Positions 166 to 32,932 of a DNA stretch of 35,140 nucleotides are shown in pieces. Positions within the stretch are counted from its first letter, which is position 1; every line of letters starts with the position of its first letter. The notes below the pieces were generated by a model. The model worked only from the letters and a program-made list of their open reading frames with translations, was not told where the DNA came from and made no database searches. Position numbers and translations under genes: made by a program. This stretch comes from a virus (taxonomy: Duplodnaviria; Caudoviricetes): the IMG/VR virus record IMGVR_UViG_3300023269_000003, positions 1 to 35,140 of that record; one strand, 5' to 3'.

Positions 166-353
166 AGTTGAACGACCCCATCTGGATATTGGGTCAGATC
201 GAAGGCTACTTCGATCGATACATGGATGTCCGTGATCCATACGGGCGGGTCATGGTTGGGGTTCCCTCCCTTCGGGGAGGGGTTCCCGCAATCGTTCCAC
301 GTGAGTGGATCACCCCACGAGATGATTGGATGGCCAACCGTGGTAAGACGTGA
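156..353 (+). CDS. hypothetical protein (65 aa)
   Basis: GGAGGA RBS, ATG at 156, overlaps the helicase stop. Confidence 0.65.
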   Translation: MGLKLNDPIWILGQIEGYFDRYMDVRDPYGRVMVGVPSLRGGVPAIVPREWITPRDDWMANRGKT

Positions 354-525
354 GTATGTTGACGTCTGCCCTGCTTGCCACACTGTGTACCGAGGGTACA
401 AGGAGGCGGCCGTGCAGAACCAAGCAGAGAACTGCGCAACCCGTTGTTCTCCCAAGGATGAATCTGGTGCACCATCTCTGGATGAGGCGCTGAAGAAAGC
501 ACGAGAGGAATTGGGTGACTGGTAA
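340..525 (+). CDS. small CxxC protein (61 aa)
   Basis: GTG at 340; CPAC...CATRC; stop overlaps next ATG (TAATG). Confidence 0.55.
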   Translation: MVRREYVDVCPACHTVYRGYKEAAVQNQAENCATRCSPKDESGAPSLDEALKKAREELGDW

Positions 526-1043
526 TGGCCCGTGCAAGAAGGGCACGGAGCCCTGCGACGAAGAAACCCTCTGCGAAGACGCAGAACGACTCCTCAACTA
601 CGACTGGTCTATCGAGTTCTTCTACCAAGCCATGCAAAGGGTGTGGCTCTACGACCAGGAAGCTCACGGCACCAGGGCCACGATGCGCGACATGCCACAG
701 AGACCGCCGTACTACCGTCCAGTTGGCCCGTAGACTGGCGTACGTGGCTAAGCAGTATGGTCTGACCCCAGAGCAGTACCAAGCCCTCTGGGACGCACAG
801 GAGGGCAAGTGCTACATCTGTAAGAGGAACAAGGGCAACTGTGTAGACCACGATCACAAGTGCTGCCCCGGAAAGACCTCGTGCGGTAAGTGTGTTCGTG
901 GATTGCTCTGCAATCCGTGCAACAAGGGTGTCCTTGGGCACTTGCGTGACAATGTGCAATCACTGATCAGGGCAATCACGTACCTGATGTTTCCCCCAGC
1001 CCACAAGGTGTTCGAAAAACTGAAGGAGAGTAACGATGAGTGA
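525..1043 (+). CDS. Endonuclease VII-family protein
   Basis: YGLT..QY..L...QEGKCYIC...VDHDH...VRGLLC..CN..LG motif. Confidence 0.9.
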   Translation: MARARRARSPATKKPSAKTQNDSSTTTGLSSSSTKPCKGCGSTTRKLTAPGPRCATCHRDRRTTVQLARRLAYVAKQYGLTPEQYQALWDAQEGKCYICKRNKGNCVDHDHKCCPGKTSCGKCVRGLLCNPCNKGVLGHLRDNVQSLIRAITYLMFPPAHKVFEKLKESNDE

Positions 1044-1542
1044 CTACAAGCCGACCCAGCTCATGCTTGACTGGCACGCGGCCCTTCTGGAAGAGGGCCG
1101 CAAGCAGACGACCGGCACGTTGGGCAAGATGGAGAAGGATGGGACCGTGTCGAACTGTTGCCTCGGAGTTCTTTCCGAGGTTGCCGGGAACGTCGGCAAG
1201 CAGTGGTCCACGGGAGATCCTGACTTCCCGTTGTCTTCGACCCTGAAGTACGACGGGCCTAGCGCGAATGGTGATGTTTCCATGCCTTCGACGCACCTCA
1301 TTGCGGAGGTGCTGGGCCTGAACGACAGCTTCACCTTCCCTGGTGATGTACAGGTGGGTGTCGATGTCTACGGCACCAAGGTGAACGCGGCCGACCTGAA
1401 CGACGACTGGGGTTGGTCTTTCGAAGAGATCGCAGTCCAGTTGAAGACCGTGTACATCGATGGCACGGGTAACCCGATGGAATACACCATCGAAGAGTTG
1501 GACAGGAACGAGCGGTCGGACGATGACGACTGCGGATACTGA
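1036..1542 (+). CDS. hypothetical phage protein (CCLGV motif)
   Basis: AAGGAG RBS, 168 aa ORF coupled to Endo VII. Confidence 0.8.
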   Translation: MSDYKPTQLMLDWHAALLEEGRKQTTGTLGKMEKDGTVSNCCLGVLSEVAGNVGKQWSTGDPDFPLSSTLKYDGPSANGDVSMPSTHLIAEVLGLNDSFTFPGDVQVGVDVYGTKVNAADLNDDWGWSFEEIAVQLKTVYIDGTGNPMEYTIEELDRNERSDDDDCGY

Positions 1543-1551
1543 AAGGTAGAA

Positions 1552-1635
1552 ATGACGAAGCAGTGCATTTTCGGCGGTGAATGTATCGATGGGTGCGAGG
1601 TTGGCACCGAGGTACAGGAAAACGACGAAGACTAG
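1552..1635 (+). CDS. 27-aa Cys/acidic microprotein MTKQCIFGGECIDGCEVGTEVQENDED
   Basis: AAGGT RBS then ATG; fills the gap between CDS and ribozyme. Confidence 0.55.
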   Translation: MTKQCIFGGECIDGCEVGTEVQENDED

Positions 1636-1637
1636 CA

Positions 1638-1689
1638 GGGCGAAACGCCGGGAGGCGTCCACGGGTTGGTCCCGTGCCGATGAGCCCAA
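1638..1689 (+). ncRNA. type II hammerhead ribozyme (U4C core variant)
   Basis: gggc-GAAA-cgcc(ggga)ggcg-UC^cacggg(uuggu)cccgug-CCGAUGA-gccc; all three helices pair; GUC triplet at 1657-1659. Confidence 0.8.
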
Positions 1690-1700
1690 GGGAGGTGAGC

Positions 1701-1820
1701 ATGGATTGTCCCAAAGGCGGTGAGTGCCCCGATCCCGAGGCCTGTCTGCAAGGCGCACCGTGTGAAGTAGTTGTCTACTGGACCGACGTAATGAAGGAGC
1801 GGAAGAATGACGAACGCTGA
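1701..1820 (+). CDS. 39-aa Cys-rich microprotein MDCPKGGECPDPEACLQGAPC...
   Basis: GGAGGTGA RBS before ATG 1701; four Cys in C-x5 spacing. Confidence 0.7.
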   Translation: MDCPKGGECPDPEACLQGAPCEVVVYWTDVMKERKNDER

Positions 1821-2019
1821 AGGTACCGAGGCTCTGAACATCTTCTCCGCATGGTTCGAGGAAGACCACCCTGCGGGTTACTACACCCGTGGAGAGGGTT
1901 ATAACCACAACTGGAAGCTGACCGTGGAAGATGGGGTTGGCATTCTCAGGGTTGTCATGGAAGACATGCACACCCTGGACTCCGAGGAGTTCGAGTGGAC
2001 CCTGAACCTCCGATCGTAA
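1807..2019 (+). CDS. hypothetical protein (70 aa)
   Basis: AAGGAG RBS, acidic ORF overlapping its neighbours. Confidence 0.7.
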   Translation: MTNAEGTEALNIFSAWFEEDHPAGYYTRGEGYNHNWKLTVEDGVGILRVVMEDMHTLDSEEFEWTLNLRS

Positions 2020-2369
2020 CCCTACTGCGGAAGTGGTTCCCGGACTGGGAACCACCCCGTGGTAACCGAACGTGGGTCCCGTGTCTCTGTCCTTTCCACG
2101 CGGAGACACGGGCTTCTGCTTCCATATCTCTTGAACTCAATGCTTTCACCTGTCACGGATGTGGCATGAAGGGTGGGATTGTCAATCTGATCATGCGAAA
2201 GGAGGGCCTGAAGTTTGCAGAAGCCCAGCAGTACGCAGCTAGCTTTCTTGATGGAAGCTACGTCCCGATACCACCACAGCCTAAGCGGAAGCAGGGCCGA
2301 AGAGTATTTGGAAAGCCGAGGACTGAAGGGGGAAGACCTCAGAAAGTTCCGGCTTGGCGTAGTAGATGA
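1995..2369 (+). CDS. DNA primase zinc-binding (CHC2) subunit
   Basis: CPFH.E..ASAS......FTCHGCG.KG.I..LIM..EG..F.EA; GGAG RBS. Confidence 0.88.
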   Translation: MDPEPPIVTLLRKWFPDWEPPRGNRTWVPCLCPFHAETRASASISLELNAFTCHGCGMKGGIVNLIMRKEGLKFAEAQQYAASFLDGSYVPIPPQPKRKQGRRVFGKPRTEGGRPQKVPAWRSR

Positions 2370-3940: not shown

Positions 3941-3953
3941 AAACGAGAACACA

Positions 3954-4644: not shown

Positions 4645-4670
4645 CACGTAACTAACAAAGGATGAAACAC

Positions 4671-5210: not shown

Positions 5211-5218
5211 GTCACCTT

Positions 5219-5246: not shown

Positions 5247-5265
5247 GCCTCCCGGAAGGAACGGA

Positions 5266-7077
5266 ATGCAAACATGGACACTCCATGTTCAGGGTGACCC
5301 GGTCAAGATTCGTCGTGTTGAGTCTATCGAAGACCTGGAACTGTTTAAGGAATTTGTTCGGAAGAACCTCCGTGTCTTGGCGTTTGATACGGAGACCACA
5401 GGGCTCGATATTTACTCAAGAGGATACCGCCTTCGCCTAGTTCAGTTTGGAAACCAACATGAAGCATGGGTTATTCCCGTTGAACTAGGTGGAGAGTACA
5501 TCACGGTCACCATTCAGACCCTTAGGGCTGTGGAGAAGTTGGTAGGGAAGAACCTTCCCTTCGACTTCAAGGTGATCGACAGGTGTTTGGGTGTCCCGAT
5601 GGAAGAACTGTGGCCCAAGGCTATCGACATCGAGATCCAGGCCAAGCTCATCGATCCTCGTGCCCCTGAAAAGGGCGGGATTGGTGTGTCCTTGGAGGAT
5701 CTGGTTCGTCATTACTTGGATAGGGATCTGGCAGACGATGTCAAGGGTCTCATGTCCAAGTTGGCCAAGGAGCACAAGACAACCAAGGCGAAAATCTTCG
5801 AGAAGATCAGCCTGGACCACCCGGAGTACAACATCTATGCGGGGATGGACACCATCTTCCCTGCACGCATTGTGGGGATGCAGTCTAAACTGATCCCCGC
5901 CTCTGCTGGTAAGCTCATGGCTTTCGAGCACGAGCTTGCCGAAGTGTGTTCGTACATGGATCGCGGGGGCTTCCTCCTTGATCTGGAATACACCCAAGGC
6001 CTGTCTCTTCACCTCCATGAGGAAGAGGAGAAGTACACACAGATCGCAGCGCGGTTTGGTTGCGAGAATGTGAACTCTACCGAACAGGTAGCAGAGGTTC
6101 TGCTCTACCGTGGTGTGAAACTGAAGGAACGTACCCCGACCGGCAAGATCCAGGTGTCCAAGACAATCCTGGATAAGCTGGTGAAAGAAGGGGACGAGTT
6201 TGCCAACGCAGTACAGCAAGCGAAGAAGGCTCGGAAGTGGCGTACCACGTGGGTTGATGGCTTCCTGAACAACATGGACGACGATGGTAGGTGCCATGCA
6301 TCTATCAACACGCTTCAGGCTCGTACAGGTCGTATGTCGATCACAGGTATTCCGGCTCAGACGCTCCCTGCGTCTGACTTCACGATCCGCAAGTGCTTTG
6401 TGGCCGACGAGGGTCATTCGATCGTCTCCGTGGACTACAAGGGGCAGGAACTACGTGTTCTGGCAGCCCTGAGCGGTGACAAGACGATGATCCAAGCTTT
6501 TGCCAGTGATTCCAACCTGCACTTGATGACCGCGCAAGCTGCGTTTGGTGACCATGTCCTGAAGGACACCAAGGAGTACAAGGCTGGAAAGATTACCAAC
6601 TTCGCTAGGGTCTTTGGTGGGGGTGCCAAGGTCGTTGCAGAACAGACCGGACTCACCTTCATGCAAGCCAAGCGGGTAGTAGAGGCATTCGACAAGCGGT
6701 ATCCCGGAGTGACAAGCTACGCGGATAAGTTGTCTGCTATCGCCAAGCGGGATGGGTTCATTACCACCCACTTTGGTCGTAGACTCCCGGTTGATCCTGA
6801 CCGGAGCTACAGTGCCTTGAACTACATGGTCCAGTCTAGCTCCAGGGACATCACGTGTCGTGGAATTCTGAGGGCTTACCGTGAGGGCTACGGTCCTTAC
6901 ATGAGACTCCCAATCCACGATGAACTACTCCTCTCGATGCCGACACCACGTGCGGAATGGGGAGCACAGCAGGTTGCACGACTCATGTCCGAGAAATTGG
7001 GTGTCGTCTTCATTGACACCGATGCTGAAGTTGGGCGTAGGTCGTGGGGAAGTTTGTACTCGGAAGACGTTGACTAA
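5266..7077 (+). CDS. polA: family A DNA polymerase with 3'-5' exonuclease domain
   Basis: DTETTG, YAGMD, TGRMS, DY...ELR, K..NF, N..VQ, IHDE motifs. Confidence 0.95.
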   Translation: MQTWTLHVQGDPVKIRRVESIEDLELFKEFVRKNLRVLAFDTETTGLDIYSRGYRLRLVQFGNQHEAWVIPVELGGEYITVTIQTLRAVEKLVGKNLPFDFKVIDRCLGVPMEELWPKAIDIEIQAKLIDPRAPEKGGIGVSLEDLVRHYLDRDLADDVKGLMSKLAKEHKTTKAKIFEKISLDHPEYNIYAGMDTIFPARIVGMQSKLIPASAGKLMAFEHELAEVCSYMDRGGFLLDLEYTQGLSLHLHEEEEKYTQIAARFGCENVNSTEQVAEVLLYRGVKLKERTPTGKIQVSKTILDKLVKEGDEFANAVQQAKKARKWRTTWVDGFLNNMDDDGRCHASINTLQARTGRMSITGIPAQTLPASDFTIRKCFVADEGHSIVSVDYKGQELRVLAALSGDKTMIQAFASDSNLHLMTAQAAFGDHVLKDTKEYKAGKITNFARVFGGGAKVVAEQTGLTFMQAKRVVEAFDKRYPGVTSYADKLSAIAKRDGFITTHFGRRLPVDPDRSYSALNYMVQSSSRDITCRGILRAYREGYGPYMRLPIHDELLLSMPTPRAEWGAQQVARLMSEKLGVVFIDTDAEVGRRSWGSLYSEDVD

Positions 7078-7078
7078 T

Positions 7079-9454: not shown

Positions 9455-9523
9455 ATGAGACCTCTTGTTGCTGTTGTGGTTCTTTCTGCCATCCTTGCTG
9501 TGTCGCTGGTGTGGATGCACTAG
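9455..9523 (+). CDS. 22-aa single-TM micropeptide MRPLVAVVVLSAILAVSLVWMH
   Basis: Fills the gap; TAGTG overlap with the methyltransferase start. Confidence 0.5.
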   Translation: MRPLVAVVVLSAILAVSLVWMH

Positions 9524-10050
9524 TGCCATACAGTGACCAGGAGGGAAAGGACTACTCCCGGATGAAGATCCGGGATGCCAATCCAGTCTGGGTGTGGGAC
9601 ATCGGGCCGGGTGCGGGAACGTACTCGGACCTGATGTTCGATATGCACGCTTCCTACCGCACATGGACTGCGGTAGAAATCTGGGAGCCCTACGTCGAGA
9701 GGTTCAATCTCCGAGACAAGTACGATGAGGTAATCATCGGTAACGTCATGGACATCGAACTTCCCGACCACACCACAGAGGATGGTCTGGTAATCCTGGG
9801 GGATGTTCTCGAACACCTCATGGAAGATCAGGCTCGTGAGCTTATCGTTCGATGCAAGAACAGTTTCAGGTACATGCTGGTGTCCCTTCCTATCATCCAT
9901 GCCCCTCAGGGCACGGTGTACGGTAATCCCTACGAGGCACATCTGAAGCACTGGACCTTTGACGAAATGCACGCTGCTATGGGGCACTGCGAGGCCTTGA
10001 AGGGTCACACCCTTGGCGTCTACTGGTGGGACAGGGAGATCAATGGCTAG
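9523..10050 (+). CDS. class I SAM-dependent methyltransferase
   Basis: DIGPGAG, AVEIW, GDVLEH motifs. Confidence 0.85.
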   Translation: MPYSDQEGKDYSRMKIRDANPVWVWDIGPGAGTYSDLMFDMHASYRTWTAVEIWEPYVERFNLRDKYDEVIIGNVMDIELPDHTTEDGLVILGDVLEHLMEDQARELIVRCKNSFRYMLVSLPIIHAPQGTVYGNPYEAHLKHWTFDEMHAAMGHCEALKGHTLGVYWWDREING

Positions 10051-10192
10051 GGGAAATCCGGTTGGTGATTTCAACACCTCCGGCCAAGGTAAGTGCTGGT
10101 TTTGTGGTGGCTATTTCCCGGAAGCGTGGCTAGCAAACCACGCGGCTGGGTGCGACAAGAATCCAGACAACCAGGAAGAAGAGAATGAGTAA
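10043..10192 (+). CDS. 49-aa C2HC zinc-finger microprotein
   Basis: GGGAG RBS; CWFC-x11-H-x3-C; acidic tail. Confidence 0.65.
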   Translation: MARGNPVGDFNTSGQGKCWFCGGYFPEAWLANHAAGCDKNPDNQEEENE

Positions 10193-10201
10193 GGTAAGCG
10201 C

Positions 10202-10429
10202 TTGTTAAGCTACATCCTGGGCATATCCGGGGCTGTCAGCTTCCTGCTGGTGCTGAAGAACAACGTTACAGGCCTGTGGTTGGGACTTGGGAACCAGTTC
10301 GTCTGGACTTTCTATGCTCTGACCACAGGCCAGTATGGTTTCCTCTTCAGCGTAGCCCTGTTCGGCCCTATCAACATGTATGGGCTTATCCAGCACTTCA
10401 AAAAGAAGGGGGATAGTAACGATGAGTGA
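10202..10429 (+). CDS. small membrane protein, PnuC-like
   Basis: About three hydrophobic segments, W.LG..NQ..W..Y pattern. Confidence 0.6.
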   Translation: MLSYILGISGAVSFLLVLKNNVTGLWLGLGNQFVWTFYALTTGQYGFLFSVALFGPINMYGLIQHFKKKGDSNDE

Positions 10430-10661
10430 CGAACTAATGTTCGAGCGGTACGACGATAACACCGTGGTCATCAAAGGTCCCGTACCTCAGTTCACTAGAA
10501 TGACGTGGGAATTCATCCAGGCTTCTGACCCCCAATATGTCAAGTTCCACGGGGAGCACGTTATCTTCCTGGACAAGGTCACCTATCGCATAACCGGGGT
10601 TGATGACACTGGTTGTGTACTCCTAGAGTTGTTGGAGGATGGTTTCAGTGACTCTCGATGA
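10422..10661 (+). CDS. hypothetical protein
   Basis: AAGGGGG RBS, ATG 10422. Confidence 0.7.
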   Translation: MSDELMFERYDDNTVVIKGPVPQFTRMTWEFIQASDPQYVKFHGEHVIFLDKVTYRITGVDDTGCVLLELLEDGFSDSR

Positions 10662-10818
10662 TCTAGCAGACGAGATTGCCAAGTTGATGGCCCTCGCCAG
10701 GTGTGGGTGTTCTGTCTATATGGACGGTAAACACTTGCCAACCCAGAAGGAACGTGTGGAAGCTATGTACTTGGCCCACACCTTCTACCAGCACCACCCA
10801 GAATTGGAATTCACGTGA
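10648..10818 (+). CDS. hypothetical protein (56 aa)
   Basis: GGAGG RBS, GTG 10648. Confidence 0.6.
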   Translation: MTLDDLADEIAKLMALARCGCSVYMDGKHLPTQKERVEAMYLAHTFYQHHPELEFT

Positions 10819-10904
10819 TTAAGTGGATGTACGACTGCCCTGATTGCGGGGCGTTCAGGGGCACCGGTCCTTGTCCTAACGGCTGCGACGCGAAGAAGGA
10901 CTGA
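10815..10904 (+). CDS. 29-aa Cys4 microprotein MIKWMYDCPDCGAFRGTGPCPNGCDAKKD
   Basis: GTGA coupling; fills the gap. Confidence 0.55.
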   Translation: MIKWMYDCPDCGAFRGTGPCPNGCDAKKD

Positions 10905-10905
10905 T

Positions 10906-11403
10906 ATGCGATACTGGTATGACACCGAGTTCTACGAGGATGGCGAGAAGATCAACCTGATCTCCTTCGGTATCGTGGCCGAAGATGGTCGCGAACTATA
11001 CTTGGAGAACGCCAACTTTAATTGGGGCATCGTCCCAGACGACCATTGGATCTGGGAGAACGTGTACCCGCACCTCACCCATCAGCGCACCCTGAAGAAC
11101 CAGATGGCCAACAAGATTCGCAAGTTCATCACGATGGACGGTACGGAGTTCGACAATCAGCTCTGGGGCTACTACAGCTCGTACGATCATGTCGTTCTGG
11201 CCCAGCTCTTCGGGCGAATGGTTGACATGCCGGTCGGAGTTCCGTGGTACACCAACGATGTCAAGCAACTCATGGTGTCGATGGGTGTCAAGGAGCTACC
11301 ACTTCAGGATGAGGTACACCACCACGCCTTGTCTGACGCGAGGTGGACCCGTAAGGCCTACATGTACTTGGCTGACATGTGGGCAAGCGAAAACGACTTC
11401 TAG
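10906..11403 (+). CDS. DEDDh 3'-5' exoribonuclease (Rv2179c/RNase AS-like)
   Basis: YDTEF.EDG..I.LISFGIVAEDGRE.Y, W.YY..YDHV, HHAL.DARW. Confidence 0.88.
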   Translation: MRYWYDTEFYEDGEKINLISFGIVAEDGRELYLENANFNWGIVPDDHWIWENVYPHLTHQRTLKNQMANKIRKFITMDGTEFDNQLWGYYSSYDHVVLAQLFGRMVDMPVGVPWYTNDVKQLMVSMGVKELPLQDEVHHHALSDARWTRKAYMYLADMWASENDF

Positions 11404-11411
11404 GAGGAACC

Positions 11412-11666
11412 ATGAATAAGGCTCTCAGCGCCTCTGTGGCGCTCGTACTAGCCCTGGGGATGGTAGCCTGTGGGGCTGCCCCCATCAGGGGCTCACAGCC
11501 CTTCTCAGGGCGTCCTGACACGGTGCTGGACAAGTTCCGCACCCCGGACAACCGGTCCGATGTCATTCTGTTCTGTCGGAACGGGGACTACTACGTCTAC
11601 ATGGACGGTTCCAGGTCTGGTTCGCTGAACCAGTACCGCAACGACGAAAGGTGTGTTGGCAAGTGA
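11412..11666 (+). CDS. lipoprotein
   Basis: AGGAGG RBS; signal peptide with lipobox MVAC. Confidence 0.75.
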   Translation: MNKALSASVALVLALGMVACGAAPIRGSQPFSGRPDTVLDKFRTPDNRSDVILFCRNGDYYVYMDGSRSGSLNQYRNDERCVGK

Positions 11667-11764
11667 GTTGGACCTGTTTCATTTGTGGTGCTTCGATCAC
11701 AACCGACAATGCTGTGCTGTTCTCCAAGCTGGTAGACGCACACCAGAGCAGGTGTAAAGATTGA
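11663..11764 (+). CDS. 33-aa zinc-finger microprotein MSWTCFICG...DAHQSRCKD
   Basis: GTGA coupling; paralog of the next ORF. Confidence 0.65.
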   Translation: MSWTCFICGASITTDNAVLFSKLVDAHQSRCKD

Positions 11765-11868
11765 CCTGGACTTGTGTATGTGGCTACAGCGTGACCAACG
11801 ATGACACCTCGGTTGTGTCCAAGGCAATGGATGCGCATGTAAGGACGTGCATCATGCTCCAGACCTAA
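11761..11868 (+). CDS. 35-aa zinc-finger microprotein MTWTCVCG...DAHVRTC
   Basis: TTGA coupling; paralog of the previous ORF. Confidence 0.65.
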   Translation: MTWTCVCGYSVTNDDTSVVSKAMDAHVRTCIMLQT

Positions 11869-11878
11869 GGATGGTGAC

Positions 11879-12037
11879 ATGAGCCCGTGGCCTCAACCCA
11901 CTGAAGATGGGGCGATGTGTGGGATCTGTCTTTACTGGTTTCATATCGACCTGTTAGCAACCGATCCAGAAGACGGCCGGAAGGTGGATGTTTGTGTCGC
12001 CTGCTGGCAGTGGGAGCAAGAGGAAATGAAGAAGTGA
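11879..12037 (+). CDS. 52-aa CxxC...CxxC protein
   Basis: AAGGA/GGTGA RBS; CGIC...CVAC. Confidence 0.65.
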   Translation: MSPWPQPTEDGAMCGICLYWFHIDLLATDPEDGRKVDVCVACWQWEQEEMKK

Positions 12038-12150
12038 GTGAGTGGATCTGTGACCGGTGCGGAGGACGCGATGCGGCCTCCTGCCCGGAGACCTGTACCG
12101 GAAGAGGGTGGGGAGAAAATGGGTGCCAACTGGTGCTACGTATGTGGTAA
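12034..12150 (+). CDS. 38-aa Cys-rich microprotein MSEWICDRCGG...
   Basis: GTGA coupling, GAGGA upstream. Confidence 0.55.
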   Translation: MSEWICDRCGGRDAASCPETCTGRGWGENGCQLVLRMW

Positions 12151-12184
12151 GTTCAAGGGATACGGAGGCTGCACGCATGGGTGA
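12119..12184 (+). CDS. 21-aa microprotein MGANWCYVCGKFKGYGGCTHG
   Basis: GGGGAG RBS; CxxC-x8-CxH; overlaps the previous ORF by 32 nt. Confidence 0.45.
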   Translation: MGANWCYVCGKFKGYGGCTHG

Positions 12185-12260
12185 CCCCGAGGACTTAACC
12201 GATGAACTGTTAGATCGACTGGAAGAGACTGTTGAACGACTCCTAGGAGAAGGACGATGA
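12177..12260 (+). CDS. 27-aa acidic microprotein MGDPEDLTDELLDRLEE...
   Basis: GGAGG RBS; ATGA coupling to next. Confidence 0.65.
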   Translation: MGDPEDLTDELLDRLEETVERLLGEGR

Positions 12261-12364
12261 CCGATCCCAACGGTAACGCACTGAGCGAGGAAGAGCAGCA
12301 AGCAATCCGAGACGCTATCGGTGACGAAGCAGCAGACAAGTACATCTGGAGTGAAGATGACTGA
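12257..12364 (+). CDS. 35-aa acidic microprotein MTDPNGNALSEEEQQ...
   Basis: AGGAG RBS, ATGA coupling. Confidence 0.65.
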   Translation: MTDPNGNALSEEEQQAIRDAIGDEAADKYIWSEDD

Positions 12365-12437
12365 CCCGAAGAAGGACGACAAGCAGGACGATGACGAAGA
12401 TGACATCAAGGAAGGCGTCCAGTGGGGTTGGGCATGA
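12357..12437 (+). CDS. 26-aa acidic microprotein MTDPKKDDKQDDDEDDIKEGVQWGWA
   Basis: GGAG RBS, 8-nt overlap. Confidence 0.6.
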   Translation: MTDPKKDDKQDDDEDDIKEGVQWGWA

Positions 12438-12526
12438 CCAATCCTGACGACGAGCGCTTACAGGAGTTCATCCGTGAACTCGACGAGCAGGTTCCTAGAT
12501 ACCCAGAGACAGACGAAGACGACTGA
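12434..12526 (+). CDS. 30-aa acidic microprotein MTNPDDERLQEFIRELDE...
   Basis: ATGA coupling. Confidence 0.6.
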   Translation: MTNPDDERLQEFIRELDEQVPRYPETDEDD

Positions 12527-12609
12527 TGTGTAGACACTGCGAGCAACGCTCCGCAGACGAAACCCTAGACCAGATATTCGATGAGCAGGAGGAAGCAAGT
12601 GGCGGGTAA
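12526..12609 (+). CDS. 27-aa microprotein MCRHCEQRSADETLDQIFDEQEEASGG
   Basis: TGATG coupling. Confidence 0.55.
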   Translation: MCRHCEQRSADETLDQIFDEQEEASGG

Positions 12610-12709
12610 GCACAGAGCAAACGGTGAGGGCGAGTTCTCCGATGAGGAGCTGGACAGGCTCTGGAAGGACATGGAAGATAACGCTGAGGAAGACCCCGAG
12701 GACGACTAA
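12599..12709 (+). CDS. 36-aa acidic microprotein MAGKHRANGEGEFSDEELDRLW...
   Basis: AGGAGG RBS, GTG start. Confidence 0.65.
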   Translation: MAGKHRANGEGEFSDEELDRLWKDMEDNAEEDPEDD

Positions 12710-12849
12710 TGACGATGCACCCCTGCCCCGGATGCAACGCATCTGGTATGCAAGGTGACTACGTCTGCTCAGATTGTGGTGGTGAACGGTACTTCTTCTC
12801 TCCGTACAGTGCACCACCAGACAACGGAGACGACGATGACGACGATTAG
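12709..12849 (+). CDS. 46-aa CxxC...CxxC microprotein with poly-Asp tail
   Basis: TAATG coupling, GAGG RBS; CPGC...CSDC. Confidence 0.65.
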   Translation: MTMHPCPGCNASGMQGDYVCSDCGGERYFFSPYSAPPDNGDDDDDD

Positions 12850-13060
12850 GAAGCAGGTGGGAGGAACACACTACAACTCCCACCGGTTCATGCCTTTCGA
12901 CATCATCGACGAGTACGGCCTTGACTTCTATGAGGGCAACGCCGTGAAGTACCTCCTCCGCAAGAGGAAGGGTAGCGTCGAAGACCGAAAGGTAGACCTG
13001 GAGAAGGCCATCCACTACATAGAAGAGGTGATCAAACGCCTTGAGCAACCCGACCAGTGA
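12836..13060 (+). CDS. DUF3310 (T7 gp1.7-like putative nucleotide kinase)
   Basis: QVGG.HY, GNAVKYL.R, DL.KA.HY motifs. Confidence 0.85.
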   Translation: MTTIRKQVGGTHYNSHRFMPFDIIDEYGLDFYEGNAVKYLLRKRKGSVEDRKVDLEKAIHYIEEVIKRLEQPDQ

Positions 13061-13133
13061 AGGGGACCAGGAAGACGACCTGGACCTTAAGGACTATATC
13101 GACGTCCTGAACGGTGAGTTCTTCATCGAGTAG
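13041..13133 (+). CDS. 30-aa acidic microprotein MSNPTSEGDQEDDLDL...
   Basis: GAGGTG upstream of TTG; ends just before the terminator. Confidence 0.45.
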   Translation: MSNPTSEGDQEDDLDLKDYIDVLNGEFFIE

Positions 13134-13140
13134 CACAAAC

Positions 13141-13179
13141 AAGAAAAGCCCCCTCCCAATTTGGGAGGGGGCTCTTTTT
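13141..13179. terminator. bidirectional intrinsic terminator between convergent arms
   Basis: aagaaaa-gccccctccc-aattt-gggagggggc-tcttttt. Confidence 0.9.
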
Positions 13180-13190
13180 GCGTTTCTAGG

Positions 13191-13409
13191 TTACTTCACT
13201 ACCGATGGGCTCTGGGGAGCGCCAACATTCTTCAGGGCCAGACCCTTCAGCACGACCAGAACGGCACCACCAAGGCCAACCCCTAGGGCTGCCTTCCAGT
13301 CCGTCTCAATCACGTTGAAGAACTCCATACCCAAAACCGACAGTGCACCAGCACTGAAGCCCTGTACCGTCTCTTCGGCAAGGGCCTTCCAATAGGCTGC
13401 GGTCCACAT
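13191..13409 (-). CDS. holin (r1t-like)
   Basis: MWT..YWKA.AE..V..F, DW..ALG; two TM segments. Confidence 0.75.
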   Translation of the reverse strand: MWTAAYWKALAEETVQGFSAGALSVLGMEFFNVIETDWKAALGVGLGGAVLVVLKGLALKNVGAPQSPSVVK

Positions 13410-13422
13410 AATTCCTACTTTC

Positions 13423-13713
13423 CTAGTTGGTCAGCAACAGGGCAACTGTGACACCCACAACCACCGGGAACACAAGGGCGGTCATAATTGCCCAAAATGC
13501 CTGCCTGGAGGCTGTTACCCTACTGAGTCGTTCAGCTTCGAACTTTACTTCCAACGCCGTCAAGTCGTTGCGCAGGTCTGCAATCTGGTGCGCATGGGTC
13601 GAAGATTCGACGTCGTGTCTGTTGATGTAGTCCCCGAGTTTGTCACCCAAGGACCTGATCTCGGTATACAGTTCTGTCATTCCGATGGAATGCACATTAC
13701 CATCCTCCGTCAT
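13423..13713 (-). CDS. membrane protein (coiled coil + C-terminal TM), possible lysis accessory
   Basis: GGAGG RBS before ATG 13713; C-terminal hydrophobic helix. Confidence 0.7.
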   Translation of the reverse strand: MTEDGNVHSIGMTELYTEIRSLGDKLGDYINRHDVESSTHAHQIADLRNDLTALEVKFEAERLSRVTASRQAFWAIMTALVFPVVVGVTVALLLTN

Positions 13714-13726
13714 TAGGCCCTCCGGT

Positions 13727-14299
13727 TTATGTAGCACCCAGGTATTCAACCAGCATGAAACTATGCTGGTCCGTGGTGTTGGAGAACGTGGTCAGGTTAC
13801 CGCCCGTGTTCTGGTTACACCAGAGTGAAATGTGGTCGGTCGTACCATTCACCAGGATGGTAGCCGTGGAGATGGACGACAAAGCCACAAAGCCGGACGA
13901 GTAGAGCTGCTTGTCCTGGTAGGTGGACGAACCAACCACCAGCGCATTGTTCTTTCGGAACTGGCCAAGGAACTGACCCGTACCAGCAGCCGGGAAGCAG
14001 ATGCCGCCCGTGCATCGGTATCGACCAGCAACCGTAGGCGTGATCCGACTCGCGTTGGACACGTTGGAATGCCAGTTCAGTGGATCTACCACTTCGGCAT
14101 CGAAGTTGATGGCCGTAGGGGTAAGACTGGCGATGGTTTGTACACCAAAGCTGGTCTGGTAAACATGGCAGTAGGCCTGGTTGCCTACAACCGCGTTCAT
14201 TCGAGCATCAAGGTCCAGGATGTTGCTGACAACCTTGTTGTATTCGCTAGAAGAAGCTACCTGACCTGTTACGGCCGGTGCCATAGCTACGAAAGCCAT
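13727..14299 (-). CDS. minor tail / receptor-binding protein (C1q-like beta domain)
   Basis: TAATG coupling; F...DP...SRIT....GRY pattern; end of tail module. Confidence 0.65.
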   Translation of the reverse strand: MAFVAMAPAVTGQVASSSEYNKVVSNILDLDARMNAVVGNQAYCHVYQTSFGVQTIASLTPTAINFDAEVVDPLNWHSNVSNASRITPTVAGRYRCTGGICFPAAGTGQFLGQFRKNNALVVGSSTYQDKQLYSSGFVALSSISTATILVNGTTDHISLWCNQNTGGNLTTFSNTTDQHSFMLVEYLGAT

Positions 14300-23006: not shown

Positions 23007-23181
23007 TGACAACCTTCTTGGGTCGGCCCGGCTTGCGCTTGGCAGGAACGGGCTCTGAGACGTCTTCTACGGGCATTGGTTCGTCTGGGATACGCTTCCA
23101 CCCGAAGTAGGTAGAAAGTCGCACAGCGGCCGTTTCAGAGGCCTCTACGACGATCCCAGCGTCAGTCTTCATCAGTACCAT
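22999..23181 (-). CDS. small head-module protein with basic tail
   Basis: 60 aa, KRKPGRPKK; position matches the small post-capsid gene of L5-type phages. Confidence 0.65.
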   Translation of the reverse strand: MVLMKTDAGIVVEASETAAVRLSTYFGWKRIPDEPMPVEDVSEPVPAKRKPGRPKKVVND

Positions 23182-24136
23182 GTACTAGCCTTTCAAGTTC
23201 GGAGACCCAATGGGCCAACTCTGGCTTGGGGTCTAGTTCTGCCGATCGCTTGCGGGCTAGCACTGAAGCTGCTTCCCACTCCTTTGGTTCCAGGAGACGT
23301 CGGATCTCGGATTCGTATTTGTCGATGTCGTCACGGTCCACGAAGAGACCGAACGGACCCTGGGACTCCTTGAGTCCGGGGGTGGGGTGTGCGATAACCG
23401 GGATACCAGAAGCCAGAGCTTCAACACCGGCCATGCCGTAAGACTCGTAAAACGATGGCATCAGGAGAATGCGGGTCTTGGACCACACATCGTCCTTCAT
23501 GTTGCTGGTCTGCTTGACCAACTCGATGTTCTTCAAATGCTTTGGGGGATACATCTGCTCACCATGCGCGCCCTCAACAGCCAAGAACTCCACATCCGGC
23601 ATACGCCGTGCCAACTCATAGAGAATCCCGGAGCCCTTGTGCACATTGAGGTTCACCAAGGTGACCTTGTTTCCTGGGGATGTCCGGTGTTGCCCTGCGA
23701 AGACGGGGGGATGCACAATAGTGTGCGCCATCCCCGGACGCTTCAACTTCTCCATAAGCCATTCCGTGTTGAAAACAACGAAGTCTGGTTCGATGTCCAG
23801 AGTTTGTTGAATACCGGACAGGTCATTATGGCAGATGAACACGAACGGAATCTCTCGCTTGGCAGCGATGTTCTTGGCCCGATACACATTGTCATGGTGG
23901 GAAATGATGACATCAGGCTTCCAGGACATGATGTCCTGTCGTGCGTAGATGATGTTGGTGACCAGAACGTCTACACCCTCATACTCGTAACGTGGTGGCG
24001 CTTCGGGCATGACGGTTGCGTAGACCTGGACTGTGTGCCCGGCTTCGATCAATTCCTTGACCATCGCATGGAGCATCGTTTCGGAGCCCGCATTGCGGTA
24101 AGGAACGTAGAAGTGGACGAATACGGCTACACGCAT
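23162..24136 (-). CDS. glycosyltransferase (GT-B fold, GT4-like)
   Basis: AGSE..LH, KG, LLMPS.YESYG.AGVEALASGIPVI. Confidence 0.9.
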   Translation of the reverse strand: MRVAVFVHFYVPYRNAGSETMLHAMVKELIEAGHTVQVYATVMPEAPPRYEYEGVDVLVTNIIYARQDIMSWKPDVIISHHDNVYRAKNIAAKREIPFVFICHNDLSGIQQTLDIEPDFVVFNTEWLMEKLKRPGMAHTIVHPPVFAGQHRTSPGNKVTLVNLNVHKGSGILYELARRMPDVEFLAVEGAHGEQMYPPKHLKNIELVKQTSNMKDDVWSKTRILLMPSFYESYGMAGVEALASGIPVIAHPTPGLKESQGPFGLFVDRDDIDKYESEIRRLLEPKEWEAASVLARKRSAELDPKPELAHWVSELERLVHGTDED

Positions 24137-29584: not shown

Positions 29585-29592
29585 TGTGCTCC

Positions 29593-30705
29593 TTAGTTGA
29601 TCTGGCCTAGGTTCTTGACCTGCCAGTAGAATGGGAAGGTTGCGGACGCATACAGCGTCCCTGCGTTTGCTGACTTGTTTCCAAGCACGAACACCACATC
29701 CGAACCGTCCAGGTCCCCTGCTTCAACGACAAAACCTCGCGAAGAGGTAATAGTGTTGAACGGAGGCGGATACCAACCGGGGTCGCCTTCCACTGCTGGA
29801 GTAGAAGTACCCGTCGACATCCAACGTACGGCCGTAGACCCAACCCTTACCGCTGCGTCGAAGAACGACTGTGTATTGTCACCCTTCATGCCGTGGATAG
29901 AAATCTCCACCCAATCCCCTACAGCAGCGGGAATGGAGAGGACGAAATCGAGTGGCAGTCCGTTGGGTTGCCCCGGAAGGGCAAAAGATCCGCTCGTGTT
30001 TGGAAGCGGAGTCACGTTGCCGGATGTGATTCGCTCATACCTAACCTTGGGGCGTGCGGCTGCGATAGCCGCTGTCACCGCTGAAGTGTCTGCCTTAGTG
30101 GCCAGACCCGAGGTTAGCTGAGAAGTAGTAGCGTAAGAGCCTGACGGTTGCTTTCCGTCAAGCGCCGTGCTGAGTCCTGTGACATCCGAAATGGCGTGAG
30201 TGTGGACAATTCCTGCGTACCTTGCATCACCACGGGCGTTATTGTGGTATTGCGGATGGTCGTCATCAGATAGCCCTGTAAGAGAACCGTGATCAGTGAC
30301 TCCTCCTCCACCGCCTCCAGGGACGAAGATGTTTCCGTACTGGTCTGGGAAGTGTCCATTCACGCTCCTCACGGGATCATAGAGATCCGGATCAGGAAGC
30401 AGCATCCCCACCGCGTCTGGCAGGTTTAGCGCTACACCATCAATAACTTCGATGACCTTGGTCACCCTGTACAGCTCTGAGAGCCGCACAGACACCTGAT
30501 ACAGGCCTTCGGGGAGGGTTTGGTTCAACTGACCGGCTGGGACGTCTACGACCATCTTGACGGGGATTACGACGCCGTCAGGGTCGTCTGGGATCTCAAC
30601 CGATTCGAGGAGAAGGAACACGATGGTGCCAACAGCCAAGTCACCCTTGGGCGTGTACCACGTGCCGGTAACGGTCCCTGTGGGTACCGAGGCTGGAAGT
30701 GCCAT
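29593..30705 (-). CDS. virion fibre / minor tail-like protein
   Basis: V.SVNG, DHG.LTGL.DDDHPQY, H.H.ISDV.GL...L..K fibre motifs. Confidence 0.7.
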   Translation of the reverse strand: MALPASVPTGTVTGTWYTPKGDLAVGTIVFLLLESVEIPDDPDGVVIPVKMVVDVPAGQLNQTLPEGLYQVSVRLSELYRVTKVIEVIDGVALNLPDAVGMLLPDPDLYDPVRSVNGHFPDQYGNIFVPGGGGGGVTDHGSLTGLSDDDHPQYHNNARGDARYAGIVHTHAISDVTGLSTALDGKQPSGSYATTSQLTSGLATKADTSAVTAAIAAARPKVRYERITSGNVTPLPNTSGSFALPGQPNGLPLDFVLSIPAAVGDWVEISIHGMKGDNTQSFFDAAVRVGSTAVRWMSTGTSTPAVEGDPGWYPPPFNTITSSRGFVVEAGDLDGSDVVFVLGNKSANAGTLYASATFPFYWQVKNLGQIN

Positions 30706-30727
30706 GTGCTCACAACTTTCTATAGCA

Positions 30728-30780
30728 TGTTCAATAAACGTGTCTGTTCAAATTTCCTGAACATACAGAAAAAATGAACA
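30728..30780. repeat. symmetric four-box inverted repeat (TGTTCA x2 / TGAACA x2)
   Basis: TGTTCA-N11-TGTTCA-N7-TGAACA-N11-TGAACA. Confidence 0.75.
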
Positions 30781-30784
30781 CCGG

Positions 30785-30856
30785 TCAGGATGGGTGGGAT
30801 CGAACCACCGGCCCCGCGCTTCCAAAGCGCTCACTCTACCTCTGAGCTACACCCTG
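30785..30856 (-). tRNA. tRNA-Pro(UGG)
   Basis: Cloverleaf; loop UU-UGG-AA; T-loop UUCGAUC. Confidence 0.9.
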
Positions 30857-30892
30857 ATGATGGTTGTTTAAGGGACAACCCACAAACCCTTG

Positions 30893-30965
30893 AGCCGCTA
30901 CTAGGACTTGAACCCAGAACCACCCGCTTACGAGGCGGGTGCTCTTCCATTTGAGCTACAACGGC
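30893..30965 (-). tRNA. tRNA-Thr(CGU)
   Basis: Cloverleaf; loop CU-CGU-AA. Confidence 0.92.
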
Positions 30966-30969
30966 AAAG

Positions 30970-31042
30970 CGGGGCCACGAGGGCTTGCACCTCGCACTGC
31001 GGTTTTGGAGACCGCTGTTTTGCTCACCTAAACTATGTCCCC
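30970..31042 (-). tRNA. tRNA-Trp(CCA)
   Basis: Loop CU-CCA-AA; atypical T-loop UGCAAGC; one acceptor mismatch. Confidence 0.8.
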
Positions 31043-31095
31043 TTGACTAGCACACGCAAAAGAACCGTCCGCAGTCTTTACACAAAAACACCATG

Positions 31096-31166
31096 CTGGT
31101 CGCCCTGGATTCGAACCAGGAACGCTGGGTTCAGAGCCCAGTGTGTTGCCGTTACACCAACAACCA
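31096..31166 (-). tRNA. tRNA-Gln(CUG)
   Basis: Cloverleaf; U1:A72; loop CU-CUG-AA. Confidence 0.92.
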
Positions 31167-31219
31167 TTGGTCCGTGCACACTCTTACGCAGGCGTCCCCA
31201 CTCGCGAATACACGGATTG

Positions 31220-31291
31220 TCATCCATCCAGGATTTGAACCTGGAACCTAGAGCTTAAGAGGCCCTTGCTCTACCCTTGAGCTAATGGACG
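31220..31291 (-). tRNA. tRNA-Lys(CUU)
   Basis: Cloverleaf; loop CU-CUU-AA. Confidence 0.92.
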
Positions 31292-31292
31292 G

Positions 31293-31366
31293 TCGCTCAC
31301 CCAGGTTTCGAACCTGGTACTTCCTACTCATCAGGTAGGCACTCTGACCAATTGAGTTAGCGAGCG
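31293..31366 (-). tRNA. tRNA-Ile(GAU)
   Basis: Cloverleaf; loop CU-GAU-GA (G37). Confidence 0.85.
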
Positions 31367-31375
31367 ATAAAACTA

Positions 31376-31501
31376 TCAACCATCGATCTGGCCATTGCCA
31401 TGACAGGTCGGACATACGATCTCCGTCTGACTACCGTCTGACTCACGCTGGTACACCGTACTCGATCCACCCTTGCAGGTGTAGCAATCTATCTTAGCCA
31501 C
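31376..31501 (-). CDS. 41-aa CxxC...CxxCxGxG zinc-binding microprotein inside the tRNA cluster
   Basis: AAGGAG RBS, GTG 31501: MAKIDCYTCKGG...CPTCHGNGQIDG. Confidence 0.7.
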   Translation of the reverse strand: MAKIDCYTCKGGSSTVYQRESDGSQTEIVCPTCHGNGQIDG

Positions 31502-31516
31502 TTCACTCCTTGTACG

Positions 31517-31594
31517 TGGTCGGTAAGGACGGGACTCGAACCCGCTAAGACCGGCTTCACAAACCGGTGCCTCGGCCACTTCGGCATCCTTCCT
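31517..31594 (-). tRNA. tRNA-His(GUG), imperfect acceptor stem
   Basis: Loop UU-GUG-AA; good D and T arms; CCA nearby; acceptor pairing poor. Confidence 0.7.
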
Positions 31595-31595
31595 G

Positions 31596-31667
31596 CTCCC
31601 ACAACTGGACTCGAACCAGTAACCCGCGCCTTAACAGGACGCTGCTCTGCCATTGAGCTATACGGGA
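31596..31667 (-). tRNA. tRNA-Asn(GUU)
   Basis: Cloverleaf; loop CU-GUU-AA; G73. Confidence 0.93.
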
Positions 31668-31672
31668 TTAAC

Positions 31673-31771
31673 GTGGCCGCTCGATACACCAAGTCACCGA
31701 TGGTTGTCGGGTCATTAGCATCGCTGGACCAACGGGTAGTTCCTGCCACTTCGAGTTTACTACCAACTTAG
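31673..31771 (-). ncRNA. candidate structured RNA between tRNA-Arg and tRNA-Asn
   Basis: Five complementary 5-7 bp segment pairs in about 100 nt; no family recognised. Confidence 0.4.
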
Positions 31772-31774
31772 ACG

Positions 31775-31850
31775 TCGCTCCTGAGGGATTCGAACCCCCG
31801 CAAACCCAGGTTCGTAGCCTGGTGCTCTGTCCGGACTGAGCTAAGAAGCG
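31775..31850 (-). tRNA. tRNA-Arg(ACG)
   Basis: Cloverleaf; loop CU-ACG-AA. Confidence 0.9.
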
Positions 31851-32020
31851 ATTTCTACACGGATACGATCGGCAATCCCGGACTTGAACTCTTCTACGTA
31901 GTCCATCCACTCTTGTGGCATGTTCTGCTGCCACATACCACGACTGGCTTCGATGAACCCCATATACAGGTCTTGGTACATCTTGGGCCATTCGTTGAAC
32001 TCTTCCTTGCTTGCGATCAT
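31841..32020 (-). CDS. 59-aa hypothetical protein ending inside tRNA-Arg
   Basis: GGAGG RBS, ATG 32020: MIASKEEFNEWPKMYQDLY...RVEIAS*. Confidence 0.7.
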   Translation of the reverse strand: MIASKEEFNEWPKMYQDLYMGFIEASRGMWQQNMPQEWMDYVEEFKSGIADRIRVEIAS

Positions 32021-32034
32021 CGATCCTCCGTAAG

Positions 32035-32108
32035 TGGTTACCCGCCAGGGAATCGAACCCTGATCTCCTGGGTGTAGGCCAGGAACTCTTCCTTTGAGCT
32101 AGCAGGCA
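32035..32108 (-). tRNA. tRNA-Val(UAC)
   Basis: Cloverleaf with encoded CCA; loop CC-UAC-AC (C33). Confidence 0.82.
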
Positions 32109-32111
32109 AAG

Positions 32112-32185
32112 CCGAAACGCTTGGATTTGAACCAAGAACCCGTGGCTTTTCACGCCACTGCTCTTCCAAGTTGAGCTACGTCCCG
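32112..32185 (-). tRNA. tRNA-Phe(GAA)
   Basis: Cloverleaf; loop GU-GAA-AA (G32). Confidence 0.85.
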
Positions 32186-32189
32186 TTGA

Positions 32190-32263
32190 TCCCAGTTCAA
32201 GGACTCGAACCTCGAACTCCCGAGTTACAGTCAGGCCGGTTGCCAATTACCATACAAACTGGG
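32190..32263 (-). tRNA. tRNA-Tyr(GUA), short variable loop
   Basis: Loop CU-GUA-AC; C1:G72; 4-nt variable region; irregular D arm. Confidence 0.75.
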
Positions 32264-32267
32264 ATAG

Positions 32268-32342
32268 TACCCCTCCCCAGATTCGAACTGGGAACCTTCC
32301 GGGTCTGAGCCGGACGCCTCTGCCAGGTTGGGCTAGAAGGGC
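32268..32342 (-). tRNA. tRNA-Leu(CAG), short variable loop
   Basis: Cloverleaf; loop CU-CAG-AC; 5-nt variable region. Confidence 0.82.
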
Positions 32343-32345
32343 AAA

Positions 32346-32418
32346 TACCGCACCGTGGATTTGCACCACGACAACAGGAGCTTATGAGACTCCCTGCGCA
32401 CTCCGCGCACGGTGTGTT
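32346..32418 (-). tRNA. tRNA(CAU) Met/Ile2-like, degenerate
   Basis: Loop CU-CAU-AA; minimal D arm; T-loop UGCAAAU; weak acceptor stem. Confidence 0.6.
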
Positions 32419-32483
32419 ACCCCGCTTTGATTCCCAGACGGGGGTCAACTGGGTGGGGTCATTAGACCCTCAAATCACTATGG

Positions 32484-32576
32484 CTATCGACGAGGGCAGG
32501 AGAACATGTGCTGTCCACCCTTGAGCCCGCAATCGGGGCATCCTTCGTCGCCTGGAACAAACTGGATATTACTCAC
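32484..32576 (-). CDS. 30-aa CxxC-x6-H-x3-C microprotein MSNIQFVPGDEGCPDCGLKGGQHMFSCPRR
   Basis: GTGA coupling; shared motif. Confidence 0.7.
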   Translation of the reverse strand: MSNIQFVPGDEGCPDCGLKGGQHMFSCPRR

Positions 32577-32650
32577 CACGGCCTATTCGGGCAGGTTGGG
32601 CTGTGGTTGTCGCCTAGACCGCCACACCACCTGCACTTGGTAGTCGTCAC
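32573..32650 (-). CDS. 25-aa CxxC-x6-H-x3-C microprotein MTTTKCRWCGGLGDNHSPTCPNRPW
   Basis: GTGA coupling; shared motif. Confidence 0.7.
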   Translation of the reverse strand: MTTTKCRWCGGLGDNHSPTCPNRPW

Positions 32651-32763
32651 TTGTTCTCGTTCTGTAGGTCCTTGATCACGTCACACCATGAGGCGTGTAC
32701 CCCACCGCTGTTGTGACAGGTGTCGCAGCGTTCTACGCCGTCTTCATCCTTGTACCTCAACAT
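32647..32763 (-). CDS. 38-aa CxxC-x6-H-x3-C microprotein MLRYKDEDGVERCDTCHNSGGVHASWCDVIKDLQNENK
   Basis: 7-nt overlap with upstream ORF; shared motif. Confidence 0.7.
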   Translation of the reverse strand: MLRYKDEDGVERCDTCHNSGGVHASWCDVIKDLQNENK

Positions 32764-32852
32764 GCGGGCTGATCTCTATCTGGGTTGCGGATACACCACG
32801 AGGCGTGATTACCTGCGGAGTGTCCACATTCCTTACACTTGGTGTCTGACAC
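32757..32852 (-). CDS. 31-aa CxxC-x6-H-x3-C microprotein MSDTKCKECGHSAGNHASWCIRNPDRDQPAC
   Basis: GGAG RBS, GTG 32852; shared motif. Confidence 0.7.
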   Translation of the reverse strand: MSDTKCKECGHSAGNHASWCIRNPDRDQPAC

Positions 32853-32854
32853 GT

Positions 32855-32932
32855 CTACTCCGTAGGACATTGGCCGCCGGTAGGGCAATCTTCAACCCTC
32901 GAACCACAGCCATCGCAAATTGTTGGAGCCAT
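32855..32932 (-). CDS. 25-aa Cys4 microprotein MAPTICDGCGSRVEDCPTGGQCPTE
   Basis: TAATG coupling to the lysin stop; CxxC-x6-C-x5-C. Confidence 0.65.
   Translation of the reverse strand: MAPTICDGCGSRVEDCPTGGQCPTE

Follow-up and report, generated by a model that had tools for sequence, protein, structure and literature searches.

Viruses that bear many CxxC microproteins are already known: the HF1-group haloviruses Serpecor1 and Hardycor2 encode 14 and 12 CxxC proteins of unknown function and less than 100 amino acids (aa), none of them in the structural block (PMC7230728). Here we describe 18 cysteine-rich open reading frames (ORFs) of 21–61 aa in a 35,140-nucleotide (nt) stretch of a tailed virus (IMG/VR record IMGVR_UViG_3300023269_000003, positions 1 to 35,140; hereafter the window), which by gene order and matches is a fragment of an uncultured soil phage of the L5/cluster-A-like actinophages. 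As in the haloviruses, a tailed virus carries many small CxxC proteins and its structural block is free of them. The haloviruses differ in having an archaeal host, whereas many of the window proteins have ligands in the order Cys, Cys, His, Cys (C2HC), and their selection and gene swapping have been measured.

Other described systems resemble parts of the set. One-domain C(P)XCG zinc-finger proteins make up 43 of 282 microproteins of Haloferax volcanii, and zinc binding has been shown for HVO_0758 (PMC10716476). These are likewise stand-alone chains of less than 70 aa with four ligands, but they are cellular and have two C(P)XCG motifs, a form approached in the window only by ORFs 11879, 12709 and 31501, whereas the main window families are C2HC. 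The same C2HC ligand order occurs in I-TevIII, an HNH homing endonuclease of 269 residues whose two CX2CX12-13HX3C fingers each bind one zinc and are required for DNA binding (PMC1865063). ORF 10043 has CX2CX11HX3C, but the fingers of its family are single, stand-alone, nuclease-free and acidic, with loops of about 10–22 residues. Eukaryotic C2HC fingers (UBZ4 of WRNIP1 and RAD18; TRAF/XAF1; CHHC of Gtsf1 and U11-48K) are the nearest in sequence and fold searches, and Foldseek superposes them with a root-mean-square deviation of about 1 Å over 23–28 residues, but all fall below significance (UBZ4 profile E ≥ 0.07; Z ≤ 3.2). In size, the closest parallels are the host-inhibiting genes 103 of Hammer (26 aa) and 56 of LHTSCC (25 aa), both from cluster A mycobacteriophages (PMC7474061); genes of 25–26 aa in related phages can thus act on host processes, and the main text of that paper contains neither the word zinc nor the word cysteine.

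Inventory and coding evidence

All 18 ORFs are present where the original prediction, made from the letters of the sequence, had placed them: 13 at named starts and five on the minus strand at 32484–32932. They are referred to here by their start positions.

340..525, + strand: 61-aa long-loop finger, CxxC...CxxxC; His is the third ligand in positional relatives
1552..1635, + strand: 27-aa ORF with three Cys and an acidic tail, lacking CxxC; 78% identity in G003
1701..1820, + strand: 39-aa C4 ORF, C-x5-C-x5-C-x5-C; relatives in G001, G003, G005, G006, G007 and G009
10043..10192, + strand: 49-aa acidic C2HC finger, CxxC-x11-HxxxC-xxNP; predicted beta-beta-alpha fold
10815..10904, + strand: 29-aa C4 ORF; final Cys is His in G003
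11663..11764, + strand: 33-aa finger, CxxC-x17-HxxxC; tandem paralogue of 11761
11761..11868, + strand: 35-aa finger, CxC-x17-HxxxC
11879..12037, + strand: 52-aa ORF with two CxxC (C4)
12034..12150, + strand: C4 ORF, 38 aa in the window
12119..12184, + strand: 21-aa C3H ORF
12526..12609, + strand: 27-aa acidic ORF with a single CxxC, lacking a full site in one chain
12709..12849, + strand: 46-aa two-CxxC ORF, DnaJ-repeat-like, with an Asp tail
31376..31501, − strand: 41-aa DnaJ-repeat-like ORF (31501) flanked by tRNA-His and tRNA-Ile; body replaced in two runs
32484..32579, − strand: 31-aa knuckle, CxxC-x6-HxxxC
32573..32650, − strand: 25-aa knuckle, CxxC-x6-HxxxC
32647..32763, − strand: 38-aa knuckle, CxxC-x6-HxxWC
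32757..32870, − strand: 37-aa knuckle, CxxC-x6-HxxWC-xxNP
32855..32932, − strand: 25-aa C4 ORF; start overlaps the endolysin stop

CxxC occurs in 15 of the 18, the exceptions being 1552 (C-x5-C-x3-C), 1701 (C-x5-C-x5-C-x5-C) and 11761 (CxC...HxxxC). Both arms carry ORFs of the set, always on their coding strand, with none between 13.7 and 30.7 kb; most are coupled to neighbouring genes, and they are presumably translated. A ribosome-binding site or stop/start overlap had been claimed for nearly all, and 16 do have either a Shine–Dalgarno match of at least 4 nt (10 ORFs) or a start −8 to +10 nt from the upstream stop (13 ORFs); 340 and 32870 have neither. The accompanying claim of exact tiling of the intergenic gaps was overstated: there is a 65-nt gap before 1701, and 340, 32870 and 12119 overlap their neighbours by 14, 16 and 32 nt. 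For the fourth ORF of the lysin block a start at 32870 (37 aa) is the more likely. ORF 12034 is 38 aa in the window and 29 aa in L006 and in G003; its 38-aa form is accompanied by a difference at position 12116, where three other runs, and also L006, have one extra base compared with the window.

Could these ORFs have arisen by chance, or be spacers without a function beyond maintaining translational coupling? Off-frame sequence has about 3% Cys compared with 0.8% in long genes, about 4% of short ORFs contain a CxxC by chance, and a gene caller blind to Cys codons (set neutral) overlooked 5 of the 18 and picked 13. Against this, the comparison with off-frame and shuffled sequence that had been proposed as a check finds CxxC in 18 of 70 short sense-strand gap ORFs versus 16 of 438 antisense or nested ORFs (Fisher P = 1.6 × 10^−8; two of those 18, at 7077 and 9465, are outside the predicted set and chance-like). 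In 3,330 bp of gaps that we picked around the ORFs, there are 19 sense-strand CxxC against a shuffle mean of 4.3 (standard deviation 2.0, maximum 13, 0 of 1,000 reaching 19), and 4 on the antisense strand.

Comparison with G003, a complete relative with a terminase 93% identical to that of the window, bears on the same point. Frames and Cys codons are preserved: all 18 ORFs have orthologues, and over 605 codons the proportion of synonymous differences (pS) is 0.456 and of nonsynonymous differences (pN) 0.089, giving a dN/dS ratio of 0.136, with 65/53/191 differences at the three codon positions. Cysteines are conserved in 18 of 18 ORFs; 60 of 61 are kept, 11 of these through a TGT/TGC change, and the sole loss is to His. 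Another scoring matrix gives 0.149 (overall range 0.14–0.16), compared with 0.30 for other small genes (15 of 22) and 0.19 for large genes (32 of 36). Among the 30 strain differences listed inside the ORFs, 23 are synonymous, 5 change a residue, none at Cys, and 2 swap GTG and ATG at the proposed starts 32579 and 32870. The chance-ORF reading is largely refuted by the G003 orthologues and the strain differences, and we give it hardly any weight. Judged by selection rather than expression, the 18 ORFs are almost certainly real coding genes under purifying selection.

Predicted zinc sites and families

Four candidate Cys/His ligands lie within one chain in 16 of the ORFs; 1552 has three, and 12526 has two, its only Cys. 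At least four distinct ligand patterns occur. Metal sites are probable, given the interchange of Cys and His in G003 and in the alignment A1 described below, and most of the 18 very probably adopt a single-zinc fold. Each chain would hold one Zn2+ through a C4 or C2HC set (not 12526, and perhaps not 1552), the zinc site serving as the stable core of a 21–61-aa chain and a variable loop or helix as the binding face.

Zinc sinks, suggested in the original prediction, or thiol/redox buffers that alter the metal supply of the infected cell would also use many Cys-bearing peptides, and zinc-like small genes are enriched clade-wide. Metallothionein-type clusters contain roughly 20–30% Cys. Such a Cys-dense, multi-metal cluster is not what the window ORFs offer (63 Cys in 654 residues, 9.6%), and their 2–5 Cys per chain suffice for one site each. 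As Cys makes up less than 10% of codons, the low pN relative to pS means that other residues are conserved too, and a sink should require neither many unrelated sequences nor conserved surfaces. We therefore consider this idea improbable.

Two of the families are C2HC and have no Pfam or PHROG model: family a, the largest, with long-loop fingers (340 and 10043, with 11663 and 11761 by pattern), and family b, with a shorter knuckle, CxxC-x6-HxxxC, of which a tandem row of four follows the lysin. Their common ending HxxxCxxNP occurs in 9 of 10 clade genomes (1–5 each; one G003 match is chance-like) and in 0 of 5 outgroup genomes. Family c comprises two-CxxC forms (11879, 12709 and 31501), and the other ORFs (1552, 1701, 10815, 12034, 12119, 12526 and 32932) have other patterns. 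Pfam and PHROGs scans of the 18 ORFs gave no family above cut-off; ORFs 31501 and 12709, with two repeats each, score 23.2 and 14.3 against PF00684 (DnaJ central zinc finger), for which the gathering threshold is 32.7.

In alignment A1 of the long-loop family (24 sequences), three Cys and one His are invariant, except that the His is Cys in ORF 340, and the loop varies from about 10 to 22 residues. An AlphaFold model of 10043 predicts a hairpin and helix (pLDDT 73), to which C2HC and C2H2 fingers come closest in fold, none of them significantly. Members match Pfam models (zf-C2HC_2, UBZ4, zf-TRAF and XAF1) weakly, with a best E of 2 × 10^−4. Run against 1.84 billion proteins, the A1 profile retrieves 706 at E ≤ 0.001, many of which have the finger in tandem, and CxxC...HxxxCxxNP is present in 112 of 143 newly listed matches; a search of the ESM Atlas returned unnamed clusters only. 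PHROGs annotated as endonucleases are matched by 11 of 23 A1 hits scanned, and two hits match positions 195–265 of 269, the finger region, in phrog_12324, which is probably the I-TevIII family given that its 269 positions equal the length of I-TevIII; none of the 18 window ORFs matches it. In tblastn searches of cultured phages, 10043, 32870, 11879 and 31501 found matches at E ≥ 0.08 only, and the best for 10043 fall in HNH endonucleases.

The shorter knuckle form is, by sequence pattern, a widespread phage module. CxxCGxxxGxHxxWC occurs at 83 loci in viral contigs versus 5 for a frame-broken control; 2 of the 83 contain a stop and 25 are duplicates, which leaves 56 unique hits: 16 small ORFs that stand alone, and others that lie in larger proteins or lack a start. 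Cultured phages carry unannotated examples, tied to the window knuckles by motif alone: a 25-aa stand-alone ORF in Arthrobacter phage Gordon (L152:1992-2069; L221), with a start that overlaps the stop of gene 78, and a 27-aa CxxC-x6-HxxxC-xxNP ORF in Streptomyces phage Jay2Jay (L101:28374-28456), also overlapping the upstream stop and matched at the DNA level in 28 records of Streptomyces phages.

The setting of these knuckles raises the possibility that they bind or protect phage tRNAs, in the manner of RNA-binding CHHC or CCHC knuckles. In the window, G001, G003, G004 and G007 they either immediately precede the tRNA array or fall within it, and a G006 knuckle overlaps the stop codon of what is probably an RNA ligase gene. 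The ORF of Jay2Jay and EGole sits between RNA ligase and polynucleotide kinase, Gtsf1 is the top Foldseek row for 10043 (E = 0.91), and for the pattern ending in NP a tRNA lies within 2 kb of 4 of 7 small stand-alone hits, including 2 of 5 outside the clade. For the HxxWC pattern, by contrast, this holds for 0 of 14 such hits outside the clade; the motif is also fused to unrelated proteins (DUF3310-like in 3 of 20 knuckle hits scanned), and no knuckle was found in G009, which has ten tRNAs. Unrelated Cys ORFs likewise fill tRNA gaps, so that the array resembles an insertion site. A tRNA-linked function is mostly not supported by the pattern scan, and we rate it a slim prospect.

Related small ORFs occur alongside the 18. 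A 56-aa ORF at 10648–10818 (+) with a CxC...H/H pattern, kept in G003, G007 and G008, is likely a nineteenth metal-binding microprotein. ORFs 1552, 1701 and 32932, from both arms, have the short motif C-x2-GG-[EQ]-C in common. Interleaved with the Cys ORFs at 12177–12709 and 13041–13133 (+) are six very acidic ORFs of 26–36 aa, possible DNA mimics; three of them (12257, 12599 and 13041) also occur in G001, G003, G007 and G009. A DUF3310-like gene (12836–13060, +) adjoins ORF 12709.

Protein or nucleic-acid partners

We interpret the 18 as conserved genes of several unrelated families, most of them zinc-folded, which are probably stand-alone binders of proteins; on balance we favour host regulators or defence proteins as their targets. 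For the long-loop family, protein partners are preferred because each member is a single acidic finger, whereas the DNA-binding relatives are tandem and mostly basic. Stand-alone long-loop proteins are net negative in 24 of 24 cases (19 cores, mean −1.9), and eight multi-domain hits that we chose by hand, most of them nuclease-like, have 29 cores with a mean charge of +1.8.

The same folds could instead bind nucleic acids, as small regulators of transcription or translation of phage or host genes. I-TevIII, which has the nearest characterised motif, needs its fingers to bind DNA (PMC1865063), and a viral finger of 59 aa, AFV1p06, is cited as binding DNA (PMC7230728). The A1 profile has weak matches to PDB proteins of the classical C2H2 kind (best E 1.7 × 10^−4, summed over repeats), and the cores of the knuckles range from neutral to basic and include aromatic residues. 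The uniform acidity of the stand-alone long-loop members argues against nucleic-acid binding, as does net charge across the window set, which is positive for just 2 of the 18 ORFs. Moreover, a single zinc finger recognizes about three bases and has low affinity. We regard nucleic-acid binding as unlikely for the set.

Several observations weigh against protein binding or leave it less secure. The hand selection of the multi-domain hits is one, and P0054, from the hand-picked nuclease-linked set, matched a phosphatase-annotated family instead. The window knuckle cores have charges of +2, −1, +2 and +1, and the charge argument is limited to the long-loop family; the knuckle structure model is poor (pLDDT 66, pTM 0.32). 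Fold searches returned nothing at E ≤ 0.001 and Z of at most 3.2, and their rows mix DNA-, RNA- and protein-binding fingers; this lack of a significant match does not show a new fold. RNA run X24 yielded two partial contigs and no sign of expression. Taking the 18 together, we lean modestly towards protein partners, likely of the host, a step from fold to target that we infer; the choice of protein over DNA would be the weaker part of the mechanism.

Clade enrichment, turnover and implications

Zinc-like proteins account for 92 of 385 small genes (24%; 0.9–3.1 per 10 kb, one gene caller) in ten genomes of the clade, versus 7 of 143 (5%; 0–0.4 per 10 kb) in eight other actinophages (G011–G014, L5, R4, RER2 and Sonny), a difference with a Fisher P of 7.5 × 10^−8 that is overstated as the genomes are related. 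A 50-kb segment of Jay2Jay, picked on account of its small genes, reaches 9 of 45 (20%; 1.8 per 10 kb), every one longer than 50 aa. Compared with its cultured relatives the clade is enriched, yet it is not unique.

Within the clade the repertoire changes. G001, G007 and G009 keep 4–6 of the 18 Cys ORFs versus 14–15 of 22 other small genes, a turnover that must be read as an upper bound, and to that extent tells against us, as short queries lower the sensitivity of tblastn; different Cys-rich ORFs occupy the corresponding regions of these genomes. The body of ORF 31501 lacks 84 nt in runs X9 and X13, which have 172 nt in their place, and L003 has a different version. ORFs 11663 and 11761 resemble each other in DNA (z 3.6), as expected from tandem duplication. 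A joint in X13 that skips 10046–10169 was left uncounted, as one side is just 30 nt. Template repeats of the kind used by diversity-generating retroelements were absent from the 20 largest of at least 60 families. Given the retention, replacement and duplication data and the absence of template repeats in that search, diversity arises through gain, loss, tandem duplication and whole-gene swapping under purifying selection, not through diversifying selection. Two further likenesses were seen: 32763 resembles 1701 in DNA (z 4.8), and G006 encodes two paralogous proteins of 83–85 aa (L075:11092-11343 and 11600-11857), each with two HG...Y.CRC..C repeats.

The predicted library of varied Zn-binding scaffolds thus survives in part. 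Metal sites are probable and the repertoire is varied and clade-enriched; a single library under diversifying selection is unsupported, because dN/dS (0.149) is below that of both other small and large genes and at least four unrelated patterns occur. Selection probably acts on each gene through a target of its own, with no shared operon logic or diversifying machine. A bolder proposal, which we put forward as speculative, is that the C2HC finger of homing endonucleases has been reused as a scaffold, nuclease-free and acidic, with a fixed CxxC...HxxxCxxNP core and 4–22 variable loop residues, and is swapped among strains as whole-gene cassettes, each directed at a different host defence or DNA-binding protein.

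Gene matches place the window among actinophages: HNH, lysin, tRNA array, terminase, portal, capsid and tail on one arm, and primase, polymerase I and endonuclease VII on the other. Its terminase shares about 64% identity with those of cluster A mycobacteriophages; in 9500–14300, DNA matches to cultured phages are confined to short stretches of a DnaQ-like gene. The metagenome runs containing the window are from leaf litter and soil, endolysin matches (about 30% identity) spread over several actinobacterial genera and indicate no single host, and related viral records of 54–56 kb suggest that about 20 kb is absent from the window. A search of 30700–35140 for an excess of promoters or terminators found none convincing. 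The tRNA array (30783–32342, −) has 13 tRNA genes, and besides ORF 31501 three inter-tRNA stretches are replaced in other runs. A GT4-type glycosyltransferase (23162–24136, −) directly follows the major capsid gene, and a S-adenosylmethionine methyltransferase lies at 9562–10050 (+); together they may be a sign of virion glycosylation.

In the literature covered, essentially main texts and few subscription papers, we found no such set in an actinophage and no description of these C2HC families. What is new is the measured clade enrichment, a C2HC family that is stand-alone and acidic yet linked to endonuclease fingers, and test cases in cultured phages. Screens for counter-defence and host takeover begin from annotated genes and overlook most genes of 21–50 codons, of which this phage has 18 under selection in 35 kb. 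The unannotated knuckle ORFs of cultured phages with workable hosts (Jay2Jay in Streptomyces lividans and Gordon in Arthrobacter) make function testable. If the scaffold proposal is true, these phages would hold a natural set of counter-defence binders of 25–60 aa that gene callers have overlooked.

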